Shown here piece after piece: positions 52,173-54,786 of a stretch of DNA of 64,000 nt (its first letter is position 1; every line of letters begins with the position of its first letter). The DNA lies in the IMG/VR virus record IMGVR_UViG_3300010400_000001, positions 72,227 through 136,226 of that record; one strand, given 5' to 3'. The notes under the pieces were generated by a model that was not told where the DNA came from, did no database searches, and worked only from the letters and a program-made list of their open reading frames with translations. The stretch is from a virus. A program made the translations under genes and the position numbers.

Positions 52173-52996
52173 CTGACAATGGACGCCTGTTACGAAGTCT
52201 ATTCCGAAGTGTCATCCGATCAGCTCACGCCGCTGATAATCGCCGCCCATCACGAGGTGCTACTGGACCTGACAATCGCTGCCCGTCACGAGAGGTACCG
52301 CGCCTGACAAGCGCCGCCCGTCACGAAGCGACTTTCGAGACCGCTGCGGTCGTCGACCGAACGACTTCGGGGTCGAGCGATTGACAAGCGTCGCCCGTCA
52401 CGAAGGTGCTTTCTCCTCCGCAAAGCCGCGGAGGAAACAAATGGAGAATTGACATCTGACAAGCGCCGCCCGTCACGAGGTGACTCGCGAGTGACGGAGC
52501 GTTCTCTGCTCGCAGCGTCAGAGCAACGACTGACAACTCGGCGTCCGTCACGAGGTGCCTCCCAAGAGCTCGGTGCGCGCGTTGCTTCCGTGGTCGCACC
52601 AGTCTGACAAGCGCCGCCCGTCACGAGGTGCCCCCTCGCCCGTTGAACGGGAAGCGTCGTACGATGACGCCCGGGTACTGATAAGCGGCGCCCGTCACGA
52701 GATTCCCCTCGAGCGGGTCGTGCTCGTACAAGTCACCTTCTGACAAGCGTCGCCCGTCACGAGGTGCCCCTCGCTCCGGCGAGCGACATGCGACTGCACC
52801 CAGGGGCGAACCTCTGACAAGCGCCGCCCGTCACGAGGTGCCCCCCGCTTTCGCCAGCGCGAACACACCGGTGGCGACGAGAGTCGTCTGACAAGCGCCG
52901 CCCGTCACGAGGTGCCCCCCGCTGCGCGATCAGCGCAGATCCCAGGAGACTGACTATGGCCTGACAAGCGCCGCCCGTCACGAGGTGCCCCCCGCT
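52173..52996 (-). CRISPR. CRISPR-like array, 13 units; consensus repeat (minus strand) AGCGGGGGGCACCTCGTGACGGGCGGCGCTTGTCAG
   Basis: Repeat starts on the + strand at 52173 (degenerate), 52233, 52269, 52304, 52381, 52456, 52530, 52604, 52678, 52740, 52814, 52888 and 52961. Period is mostly 73-77 nt with unique spacers. The three rightmost repeats are identical and divergence increases leftwards. Confidence 0.9.
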
Positions 52997-54786
52997 CGGT
53001 GCGCCAGGAGACCTGGAAACTCGCTGCGTTGGGGCTCGATTTGCGAGCGGTTCGGATCGTCGGCTCCGAACAAGGCCGTATCCAGGCCGAATTGCCTAGA
53101 TCCTAGATGGGCGTCACCAGACTGCTCGAAAGGAACTTCGTGATAGGCGTCGATTGGTCGCACTGAGTGCGACGCTCCGGAAACCCGATTGCCGGGGCCT
53201 GGGGCGCTTGTTACGTCGCCATGCGGGGCCGTGACAGAGGATTTCTCCTCCGCCCGTGCCGTCCGCTTCCGCCGGCCGTTATCCCCTTTCGGGGGTTTCA
53301 AACCCGCGCTCCGCGGGCCTGCTGCTGGGTCGCCCGAAGGCGCCCGGTAGTTCAATAGATTGATCGCCGAATTGTCGTCGCGATCTTCCTGATACCCGCA
53401 CGTCGGGCACATGAACGTCGGATAGCCGGCGTTCGTGTCGCGCACGGCATTACAGGCCGAGCATCGGTTCGTCGTCGGCTCCTCTATCGGAACGAGCTCG
53501 AGGCGACCGCCGGCCCACGCCTGCTTGTACTCGAGCCGTCGCCTGAGATCTCCCATGCGAGCGGCGTGAACATTTTTGGCAAGTCGGTTTCGAGTGCGCG
53601 CGGCGTCTCCGCGCTTTCCGGCGCGCGAGAGCATCTTCGCAATGCCGGGTCCTCGCATCCGGACGGTCTCGGCGCCCATGTCGGCGATCTGACGAGCGGC
53701 CTTGCCGCAGACGTCGTCGCGAAGGGATTTGATGCGCGCGTGGTAATGAGCGACTCGCATGGCCGCTTCTTTCCAGCCCTGGCTTTGGTCGCGGGTTTTC
53801 ACCCCGTCCTTCCATCGGCGAGCCATCCGCCGTTCCCACCGCTTGCGAAGCATCTCGAACTTGTCGATGCGCCGGTCGTCCCGAAGTGGCGAGTGCCACA
53901 CGTGCCCCGCGCGCTCGCCGGTGGAAGCAACGGCAAGAACACGGACTCCGACTTCTACGCCGAGCTCCCTGCCGGGGACTCGCTTGGTCTGGTGCATCGC
54001 GAGAGCACGCCCGGGACCGCGCTTTTGCGGAAAGGGGCGAGGGACTTCGCATCGAAGTGCGACGTACCAGCGGCCGTCCTTCTCGGATACGCCGAGCCCG
54101 CATGCTTTGCCACCGCCGATGAAGCGATGAGAGTTTTCCTCGGTGACCGGAAGGTAGCCGCGTTCCTTCATTCTCACCCAGCCGACGCCAGGGATTTTGA
54201 CTGCGCGCTCCGTCACTCGAATCGGATCGGGTTGGTCACTGTGATAGCTCGCGCGCTGCCGCCCGCGAAACCGCGGCGGTCCGGCGCTCGCGTAGCGGCC
54301 GGCCTTGAGGTGCTCGAAGAAGTGCTTCCAGCCGTCCGCGACGTCGAGCACGGCTTCGCGGATGGCGAATGCAGAGAGCTCAGAGAGCCAGCCAAAGCGC
54401 TCGGGTTGCTCTTCCTTGGCGGAGACGAGCTGCGAGTACCAGTCGACTCGACCAGCGCGGAAGTCAGGAAGCTGTACGCCCGAGGCAGGGCGATAGCGGT
54501 AGCGCGAGCCCGCCTCTGATTTCGGCGTACGCACCTTCACGGGCTCGCCGCGAATGAGAGCTGCAAGGCAGTAGCCGAAGAGAGCCGCAGCCTCCCCGCC
54601 TTTGGCGTCGATGCCCGCGAGCGCCCGGCAGCCGAGCGCGACCCCGCGGGTCCCGTCGAGCTCTTTCCATTTTTCCAAGGCCCAGTTGTGGGCCACTCGC
54701 GCGCCGGCGACATGTCGCGCGAGCACGACCCGCTGCTCGTCAGTCGGATCGAGCTCGGTCTTGTAGGCGCGGAGAATGGTGGTCAT
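52978..54786 (-). CDS. TnpB/Cas12-like RNA-guided protein with inactivated RuvC
   Basis: TnpB-type N-terminus RAYKTELDPTDEQ...ARVAHNWAL, PPRFR, VKIPGVGWV and RWYVAL. RuvC-I reads GVEVG (D>E), RuvC-II VRMRGPG (E>R) and RuvC-III DRDDNSAINL, with a Zn finger CSAC...CPTCG. Confidence 0.9.
   Translation of the reverse strand: MTTILRAYKTELDPTDEQRVVLARHVAGARVAHNWALEKWKELDGTRGVALGCRALAGIDAKGGEAAALFGYCLAALIRGEPVKVRTPKSEAGSRYRYRPASGVQLPDFRAGRVDWYSQLVSAKEEQPERFGWLSELSAFAIREAVLDVADGWKHFFEHLKAGRYASAGPPRFRGRQRASYHSDQPDPIRVTERAVKIPGVGWVRMKERGYLPVTEENSHRFIGGGKACGLGVSEKDGRWYVALRCEVPRPFPQKRGPGRALAMHQTKRVPGRELGVEVGVRVLAVASTGERAGHVWHSPLRDDRRIDKFEMLRKRWERRMARRWKDGVKTRDQSQGWKEAAMRVAHYHARIKSLRDDVCGKAARQIADMGAETVRMRGPGIAKMLSRAGKRGDAARTRNRLAKNVHAARMGDLRRRLEYKQAWAGGRLELVPIEEPTTNRCSACNAVRDTNAGYPTFMCPTCGYQEDRDDNSAINLLNYRAPSGDPAAGPRSAGLKPPKGDNGRRKRTARAEEKSSVTAPHGDVTSAPGPGNRVSGASHSVRPIDAYHEVPFEQSGDAHLGSRQFGLDTALFGADDPNRSQIEPQRSEFPGLLAHRAGGTS
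53000..53340 (-). ncRNA. Candidate tracrRNA/omegaRNA-like scaffold with anti-repeat
   Basis: 53132-53156 is 19/25 identical to the repeat in inverted orientation. There is a second 9-nt match at 53203-53211 and hairpins at 53157-53173 and 53050-53071. Confidence 0.5.

Follow-up and report, generated by a model that had tools for sequence, protein, structure and literature searches.

Effectors of type V CRISPR systems have arisen from TnpB in about 50 independent events, their RuvC domain has repeatedly been inactivated, and type V effectors whose RuvC is inactivated achieve silencing through binding, according to the sections of PMC12669027 on type V. The portion of PMC10691335 on V-U systems lists 40 groups. 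Here we describe a module from a soil phage with a lytic-size genome: a gene for a TnpB-like protein (the effector), an RNA scaffold with an anti-repeat that is embedded in the gene, and a CRISPR array (Table 1). The module lies in a 64,000-nt stretch of DNA (the window; G000:C1:72227-136226), which is the final 64 kb of the 136,226-bp virus record IMGVR_UViG_3300010400_000001 from IMG/VR. This architecture is strong evidence for a phage-borne type V-like system near the root of TnpB; judged by it, the module is a self-contained, RNA-guided TnpB descendant, type V-like at the "transposon-to-CRISPR" stage. On balance, we think that this TnpB-proximal system is new, that it probably binds DNA without cutting it, and that it is used for silencing. 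We favor binding without cutting because of a fixed arginine in the RuvC-II motif, a glutamate in RuvC-I, matches to the phage's own genome that appear to be tolerated, and the precedent of subtypes V-C and V-M (type V sections of PMC12669027). An earlier reading of the window from its letters and open reading frames (ORFs) alone, the sequence-only reading, had proposed a candidate RNA-guided repressor system. As a kind, this is not new, since nuclease-inactivated type V effectors with arrays are already known (V-C, V-M, V-K, and the predicted V-O and V-P; same sections of PMC12669027). Our literature search did not find a description of the clade to which the effector belongs, which may already be included in the supplementary V-U lists and tree of PMC10691335.

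By sequence, the effector belongs to none of TranC, Cas12m, Cas12c, or TldR. The RNA logic of the module seems to be like that of TranC, and its likely output like that of Cas12m, Cas12c, or TldR. TranC systems are reportedly transposon-CRISPR intermediates, as presented by Jin et al. in Cell in 2025. Like the module, TranC (PDB 9jfq/9jfo) has a TnpB-sized effector of IS605/IS607 descent with a CRISPR array downstream, and its scaffold comes in two pieces, the repeat and a tracr-like part (TranC description in PMC13565253). The anti-repeat would give the module the same RNA architecture, with CRISPR RNA (crRNA) and tracr derived from a split omegaRNA. TranC effectors are described in the same source as nucleases, whereas the RuvC motifs here read E-R-D, which argues against TranC-like endonuclease activity of the effector. 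LaTranC is also distant from the effector (hidden Markov model [HMM] E = 4.4e-13, vs. 1.5e-37 for ISFba1 TnpB; Foldseek rank 22). Unlike TranC, the module is phage-borne, and an omegaRNA-like transcript still runs unbroken through its first unit, the stop codon of the gene being in repeat 1. Cas12m (V-M) and Cas12c (V-C) likewise pair a single effector with an array and block by binding, and V-M lacks adaptation genes (PMC12669027 and PMC13565253, where they treat these subtypes). The effector is close to neither in sequence or fold: template modelling (TM) scores with Cas12m are just 0.40-0.41 (Cas12m2, 0.41), and UnCas12m4a matches the effector only over the zinc-finger region (residues 434-477, E = 1.2e-5). 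[quoted passage not shown]

TldRs are said to be TnpB-like nuclease-dead repressors, reportedly described by Wiegand in 2024. They are TnpB-derived proteins with an altered RuvC, some are phage-encoded, and they are proposed to act by occluding RNA polymerase (PMC13622181, in its account of TldRs). Two of the three triad positions of the effector are non-canonical, although an alternative catalytic site may exist. That account of TldRs speaks of one adjacent guide RNA, with no mention of arrays, and of TldRs that adjoin the gene family that they regulate (fliC, csrA, or oppF; PMC13622181). In place of a single guide at the promoter of a linked gene family, the phage family has arrays of 9-15 guides with turnover, no such neighbor, and matched targets that lie within unlinked genes, in their coding regions.

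The best profile and fold matches of the effector are to IS607/IS605 TnpB and Cas12n (V-N, formerly V-U4), with which it shares the monomer-type TnpB fold; RdCas12n (9j09) aligned end to end with the effector (E = 4e-26). Yet the effector scores under the NCBIfam equivalog cut-offs for these groups. Cas12n has an intact RuvC, unlike the E-R-D here, and it uses a 5'-AAN protospacer-adjacent motif (PAM; the Cas12n passage of PMC12216341), in contrast to the G/C-rich flanks at our putative targets, although the 6-8 sites make this a weak test. Nor does the gene seem to be part of an IS200/IS605 or IS607 element: it is present in one copy and has no Y1 TnpA (serine-recombinase TnpA was not searched). 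Unlike the TnpB of those elements, it has an array, and its triad is not D-E-D. Cas-phi is likewise a phage-encoded type V system. Cas12r of Thermus phages and Cas-lambda are also virus-borne, with an effector and an array but without cas1 or cas2, and with spacers against mobile elements (abstract of the Cas12r preprint). These three are active nucleases from other Cas12 lineages, whereas our system is TnpB-proximal, has an altered triad, and has some self-matching spacers.

Table 1. Positions of the features of the phage module in the window
Feature	Position	Strand	Basis
Effector ORF, 602 aa, ATG start	52978..54786	-	profile and fold matches
ATGA overlap of effector start with stop of upstream 385-aa ORF	54783..54786	-	
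Clade-specific insertion behind N-terminal helix-turn-helix (HTH), ~residues 45-115	54442..54654	-	alignment and AlphaFold2
RuvC-I Glu278 (canonical Asp), motif GVEVGV	53953..53955	-	alignment
RuvC-II Arg378 at the Glu column, motif VRMRGP	53653..53655	-	alignment
CCCC zinc finger (C442, C445, C460, C463)	53398..53463	-	invariant in alignments A1-A4
RuvC-III Asp468, kept	53383..53385	-	alignment
Structured RNA scaffold (omegaRNA/tracr-like) in ORF 3' end, closing with repeat 1	52961..53320	-	covariation
Anti-repeat, pairs with nearly whole repeat (in cis for repeat 1, presumably in trans for the rest)	53130..53160	-	position and covariation
Array, 13 repeats of ~36 nt, 9 full spacers	52173..52997	-	
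Spacer 5	52643..52677	-	34/35 nt identical to own-genome G000:C1:13360-13394

The effector is a TnpB by sequence and by fold, with the HTH and wedge (WED), RuvC, and zinc-finger TNB parts. It matched NCBIfam guided_TnpB (156.3 bits, E = 1.4e-45; cut-off 100) and the Pfam families Cas12f1-like_TNB (53.8 bits; cut-off 26.3) and HTH_OrfB_IS605 (39.5 bits; cut-off 21). It was under the cut-off for OrfB_IS605 (22.7 bits; cut-off 30.5) and well under that for IS607_TnpB (125 bits). The general PADLOC profiles for Cas12f (175 bits) and Cas12u4 (171 bits) scored about as high as the TnpB profiles, and PHROG 506 ("transposase") also matched. The AlphaFold2 model, built from a 121-sequence alignment, has a predicted local distance difference test (pLDDT) of 82.3 and a predicted TM score (pTM) of 0.75. 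Residues 1-489 form a confident folded core, in agreement with the core of about 480 aa given by the sequence-only reading, and the tail (residues 490-602) has pLDDT under 50 and is predicted to be disordered. The top Foldseek match was ISFba1 TnpB (8iaz; E = 4.4e-23, TM to target 0.80), followed by 8h1j and 8exa (TM to target 0.75-0.80 across these three TnpB structures, with ISFba1/ISDra2 TnpB as the best fold) and then by Cas12f, Fanzor2, Cas12p, Cas12m2, and LaTranC. The insertion behind the HTH, which had been put at roughly 60 aa, is present but is about 70 aa, and it has no counterpart in ordinary ~400-aa TnpBs (alignment A1). It is confidently folded (helices at 16-57 and 61-79, strands at 82-85 and 95-98; pLDDT of the block 72-91). 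The zinc finger is intact, as had been claimed.

The array has the form that the sequence-only reading gave it, with 36-nt repeats and unique spacers directly downstream of the gene. The 3' ends of the repeats are at 52961, 52888, 52814, 52740, 52678, 52604, 52530, 52456, 52381, 52304, 52269, 52233, and 52173, which gives periods of 73, 74, 74, 62, 74, 74, 74, 75, 77, 35, 36, and 60 nt. Among the first nine, the period is 62-77 nt (73-75 nt in seven cases), and no two of the nine spacers are alike; their length is 27-42 nt, typically ~38 nt. Repeats near the gene are identical, the last three units are degenerate, and the repeat core does not occur elsewhere in the window. The TGA stop codon of the effector (52978-52980) sits within repeat 1. 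Two distal units (52233-52330) have periods of 35-36 nt and spacers of 0-1 nt; these look like repeat-repeat junctions after spacer loss.

The link between this gene and an array is conserved. A word-indexed protein search gave 44 proteins with E ≤ 0.001 among 8000 scored, of which 31 have 490-717 aa and 33-98% identity to the effector (P0001, from a 107-kb contig, is the 98% identical relative). An exhaustive search gave 4573 proteins with E ≤ 0.001 but just 28 with E ≤ 1e-30. We found 28 effector loci in metagenome contigs and one close relative in viral contigs (L002, 45% identity), whose virus record (G001) is complete and 140 kb long. Family-specific protein patterns gave no relative in 185,579 prokaryote species (one genome each), and a search of the viral contigs for loci of the D-E-D sister proteins gave just relatives at ≤40% identity. 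At ten loci, the window among them, the match is at family level and the DNA downstream is long enough to judge, and nine of these (the window, L002, L082, L084, L085, L086, L088, L092, and L094) have arrays with a period of 71-77, so that homologs with adjacent arrays, which the sequence-only reading had suggested looking for, do exist. (Five or six other loci, L083, L087, L090, L091, L093, and L097, have too little downstream DNA.) A single RuvC-fold effector of TnpB descent with a conserved downstream array, as in type V, is thus found at nine of 10 loci. The stop codon of the effector lies inside repeat 1 at seven loci and abuts it in L094; in L088 the array is 1 kb off. L086 has two arrays (at 1-443 and 4041-4200) with the same repeat and orientation, one after the gene and the other about 2 kb upstream at the contig edge.

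As a control, we applied a detector of periodic 14-mers (one 14-mer at least three times, with a spacing of 50-100), which found array-like repeats at 8/9 family loci vs. 11/165 other viral TnpB loci. The other loci are L011, L031, L032, L068, L262, L264, L312, L313, and L338, and also L020 and L056; nine of the 11 have the repeats directly downstream of the TnpB match. Virus-borne modules of TnpB plus array seem to be fairly common. A degenerate pattern for our repeat gave multiple matches in G001 alone among the viral contigs and, in genome contigs, single chance matches among the matches listed, with no host array of this repeat among them.

The last ~360 nt of the gene covary as a structured RNA, so the guide scaffold overlaps the 3' end of the gene, which is a trait of TnpB and OMEGA systems. 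The alignment (A5) has 360 nt ending with repeat 1 from seven loci, but L082 and L084 are near-duplicates, so there are effectively about six sequences. It has GNRA-capped hairpins with compensatory changes, and RNAalifold gave 65 pairs, of which 39 have double changes. In this structure, 83.7% of cells are paired, vs. 68.6% when the 3' letters are shuffled (reached by 0/500 shuffles) and 36-39% when slid by 1-3 columns. Similarly, the 39 double-change pairs compare with 21.1 in shuffles (0/500) and 12-16 when slid. The RNAalifold consensus leaves unpaired both the body of the repeat and a segment ~130-190 nt upstream, and RNAduplex joins the two (columns 222-283) in six of the seven loci if given the whole upstream region, or in all seven if given the region of columns 222-283 alone. 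This putative anti-repeat pairing has 18 pairs that are present in at least three loci, with 78.6% of cells paired, vs. 70.0% in shuffles (0/500) and 25-47% when slid, a slide contrast that is inflated because the structure was derived from the same sequences. In L085, the repeat is very different and the anti-repeat is altered in step. What the scaffold region encodes is the disordered tail of the protein.

Spacers turn over near the gene. L082 and L084 have the same repeat and three distal units in common, but their gene-proximal spacers differ, and the array of L084 holds an internal 108-nt duplication. When we compared Logan contigs from a landfill run (X2) with the window, we found a contig of 2591 nt with 61 differences over 1856 positions in the effector gene; its array has one 39-nt spacer in place of spacers 1-3 of the window, with more replacements distally. 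This gene-proximal turnover, together with the uniform length of the units, suggests that spacer acquisition is ordered.

The module might instead be a decaying TnpB relic of IS605/IS607 type, with tandemly duplicated omegaRNA ends and no present function. The degenerate distal repeats, the single copy, the lack of a TnpA (Y1 was searched), and one relative without an array (L089) would fit a relic. We consider it highly improbable: a full-length ORF with many invariant residues is kept down to 33% identity, the scaffold RNA structure covaries, gene-proximal repeats are identical, and spacers have turned over between 97%-alike strains.

We propose that, with its RuvC changes, the effector most likely binds without cutting. 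In place of the canonical D-E-D, the triad of the effector is E278-R378-D468; these are the residues that the sequence-only reading had picked out, and alignments of the window protein with 27 and with 120 homologs reproduced them, as did a family-HMM alignment to 8iaz (ISFba1 TnpB), made independently, in which the arginine falls under the RuvC-II glutamate. We counted residues in 43 close-family rows and compared these with 78 ordinary TnpBs. At RuvC-I, the family has E in 34 rows, D in eight, and S in one (others: D 64, H 14); at RuvC-II, R in 42 and E in one (others: E 71, Q 6, D 1); and at RuvC-III, D in 39 and E in four (others: D 65). In a quick tree (FastTree, 121 rows, midpoint rooting, no rows dropped), the 42 rows with arginine form one clade, with a local support of 100 and a branch of 0.46, that is nested among D-E-D TnpBs. 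The D-E-D triad is found in its nearest neighbors (P0057, P0059, and P0069), which are 501-567 aa long. Because the arginine-bearing rows form one clade whose members reach down to 33% identity, the RuvC-II change is old and maintained, and not a recent defect. A separate domestication of this clade is plausible, as had been suggested from the sequence of the window.

Spacer 5 of the window is in the sense of the coding strand of its near-perfect own-genome target, and the one mismatch is at guide position 16. The target is in a 198-aa ORF with weak similarity to dual-specificity phosphatases (DSP; E ~1e-3, under the cut-offs). X2 retains spacer 5, and at position 52662 (guide position 16), where its agreement with the target was established, its array contig and its target-gene contig both read the target's base. 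Because X2 keeps the spacer and matches the target at position 16, the near-perfect self-guide is apparently tolerated. G001, the virus record with L002, has 101 kb that aligns to the genome of the window in 218 pieces, with 64-75% identity for the 15 longest. Its spacer 11 matches at 35/36 nt, in the coding sense, its own gene for a 444-aa collagen-like protein, with a mismatch at position 7, and its spacer 6 has 29 exact nt in another of its own ORFs, antisense, with three mismatches in the first seven positions (2, 4, and 7). The window also has a collagen-like gene, with long Gly-X-Y coding repeats at 42391-43008 (Tandem Repeats Finder periods of 9/18/27/36/54/192), and it is the G001 equivalent of this gene that G001 spacer 11 matches.

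We pooled 72 spacers from nine arrays and searched them against the two complete genomes. Ten spacers had matches of at least 30 bits, vs. a mean of 1.6 and a maximum of five in 30 shuffles and five for reversed spacers. At thresholds of at least 34 and at least 40 bits, there were six (shuffled mean 0.13) and three (shuffled 0). The spacers are thus enriched for matches, which suggests that they derive from this phage lineage. The array had no match to GenBank phages and two chance-level matches to plasmids. Host genes, competitor elements, and the virus's own promoters had been proposed as targets from the sequence: genes of the phage itself and of its kin are indeed matched, but in their coding regions and not at promoters, and no host target was found. 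Spacer 8 (52410-52455) is the most AT-rich spacer, and its best own-genome match is 13 nt. The last 14 nt of spacer 4 (27 nt) have an exact match within the effector gene, in its 5' part (window 54720-54733, G000:C1:126946-126959; E = 0.007), which may be due to chance.

Several observations weigh against our proposal. An acidic residue is kept at RuvC-I in 98% and at RuvC-III in 100% of the clade, and two other acidic positions are specific to the clade and conserved in it, D303 (81% vs. 1%) and E340 (93% vs. 4%); one of these could supply a relocated catalytic residue. Altae-Tran 2023 infers that TnpB clades with a rearranged RuvC-II, some of them viral, probably stay active via a relocated glutamate (PMC10691335, in its treatment of such clades). 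None of the self-matches in the two complete genomes is perfect (mismatches at position 16; at 7; and at 2, 4, and 7), a pattern that an active nuclease would also produce if the targets had escape mutations. The matched targets are inside the coding regions of unlinked genes, one of them antisense, and 6-8 protospacer flanks have no shared target-adjacent motif (TAM); these flanks are G/C-rich, with ends such as GGGC, CGGG, CCCG, ACGA, and CCGA. One relative with an E-R-D triad, L089 (P0016-like), lacks the C-terminal tail and the array. Finally, at -30 to -40 kcal/mol, the repeat:anti-repeat duplex has no advantage in energy over random windows of the same length, except in L085; the observed energy was reached by 180/289, 83/402, 60/242, 49/242, 1/68, 17/208, and 45/229 random windows. 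We rejected duplex energy as evidence, as these loci are GC-rich and random windows do equally well, so the anti-repeat rests on its conserved position and on covariation. We also rejected a glutamate in β5 as the compensating residue, because it is present in just 22/42 rows. The gene in L089 (3001-4452) stops right past RuvC-III, with no scaffold region and no array within 3 kb, so it may be an orphan or decaying copy.

The effector could thus be a nuclease that stays active through a rearranged catalytic site, and the module a minimal phage type V CRISPR system that cuts kin phages, with the phage's own targets shielded by mismatches or by the lack of a TAM. Besides the acidic residues and the rearranged but probably active clades just mentioned, the spacers do match kin phages, the three strong self-matches carry 1-3 mismatches, two of them TAM-proximal, and phage type V systems are known to take part in conflicts between mobile elements (Cas12r preprint, abstract). 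We still consider cutting rather unlikely. The RuvC-II glutamate is replaced by a conserved arginine (42/43), not by a small residue that would give room for another glutamate, and RuvC-I is a glutamate in 34/43 rows. In a match of ~35 nt, one mismatch (at position 16 or 7) gives weak protection, and X2 keeps spacer 5 although, at the position where the window has its mismatch, the X2 copy agrees with the target in X2. So, binding without cutting is the reading that we favor. As for the "nuclease-dead" label in the sequence-only reading, its non-canonical RuvC-I and RuvC-II stand, but deadness itself is a step beyond the motifs, given the acidic residues that are retained and D303 and E340.

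An inactive effector might also act as an RNA-guided recruiter, bringing another activity to its target, for instance a recombinase, a transcription factor, or a function in transposition or packaging, as Cas12k or dCas12f-sigma do. Inactivated TnpBs have repeatedly been linked to tyrosine recombinases and other partners (in the portion of PMC10691335 on such associations). Outside the window, at G000:C1:13588-17337 (L253:1588-5337), is a gene for a 1249-aa protein in which Phage_integrase (E = 6.8e-17) and SAM-like N-terminal domains were recognized. This gene and the self-target of spacer 5 are divergent, and the self-target is ~200 bp from the start of the gene. However, this recombinase gene is over 100 kb from the module, the matched targets are scattered over genes that are unrelated, and there is no conserved neighbor gene across 11 family loci, which makes a recruiter quite improbable. 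Homologs of the flanking genes were not found near the effector at those loci, so we rejected a conserved partner gene. The module appears to work alone, without a protein partner.

The genome of the window carries direct terminal repeats, and CheckV rates it as 100% complete. The effector gene is single-copy in it. Profile searches found no Cas1, Cas2, or Cas4 in the window or in the whole 136,226-bp record, although control genomes did match, and no Y1 TnpA (serine-recombinase TnpA was not searched); the absence of these genes from the window had been noted before. The start of the effector does overlap the stop of the upstream ORF. The following ORF begins 15 nt past the final unit, so the array is embedded in a leftward operon. 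The flanking genes matched no Pfam or PHROG family. An Rfam search of this DNA found no family and a tRNA search found none, and a scan for promoters and terminators gave no promoter-like site and one terminator-like site on the opposite strand, at or below chance. The G+C content of the window is 60-69%. Of 10 large ORFs tested, three matched PHROGs (a DnaB-like helicase, a thymidylate synthase, and a methyltransferase). The 332-aa ORF at 48992-49990, on the strand of the effector, is similar to PHROG 8156 methyltransferase (E = 1.1e-29). In a search for the host, DnaB was ~39% identical to phages of many phyla, and an 844-aa protein had no match.

We suggest that the module would work as follows. 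A long leftward transcript would yield one omegaRNA-like guide in cis, from repeat 1. The other units would form repeat:anti-repeat duplexes in trans, with the scaffold acting as the tracrRNA, and these would be cut by a host enzyme of the RNase III type or by the effector. Each guide would then load a monomeric TnpB-like protein and direct it to matching DNA beside a TAM. With an arginine at RuvC-II and a glutamate at RuvC-I, the complex most likely binds double-stranded DNA without cutting it and would block transcription or replication. As the guides appear to come from genes of the lineage, this could silence co-infecting or superinfecting kin phages, tune the phage's own genes, or both. 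More tentatively, the module might be a self-made, programmable regulator without nuclease activity, built on a TnpB halfway to Cas12, with an omegaRNA fused to the mRNA as its first guide, later guides that share that scaffold in trans, and an array that is renewed near the gene without phage cas1 or cas2, that times the phage's own expression and shuts down its kin.

If the effector does bind without cutting, then its ~490-aa core, together with a scaffold that can be defined, would offer a small natural chassis for CRISPR interference (CRISPRi). The polar turnover of spacers without cas1 or cas2 in the phage raises the testable question of how they are gained. The locus displays the steps that have been proposed for the origin of type V arrays: an omegaRNA in the 3' end of the gene, whose last 36 nt have been multiplied into an array, and an internal anti-repeat that could act in trans for the later units. 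To our knowledge, use of a multi-guide system for silencing its kin or for regulating itself has yet to be demonstrated for any phage. The guides from its own lineage and the self-matches that seem to be tolerated point to silencing between related phages or to self-regulation.

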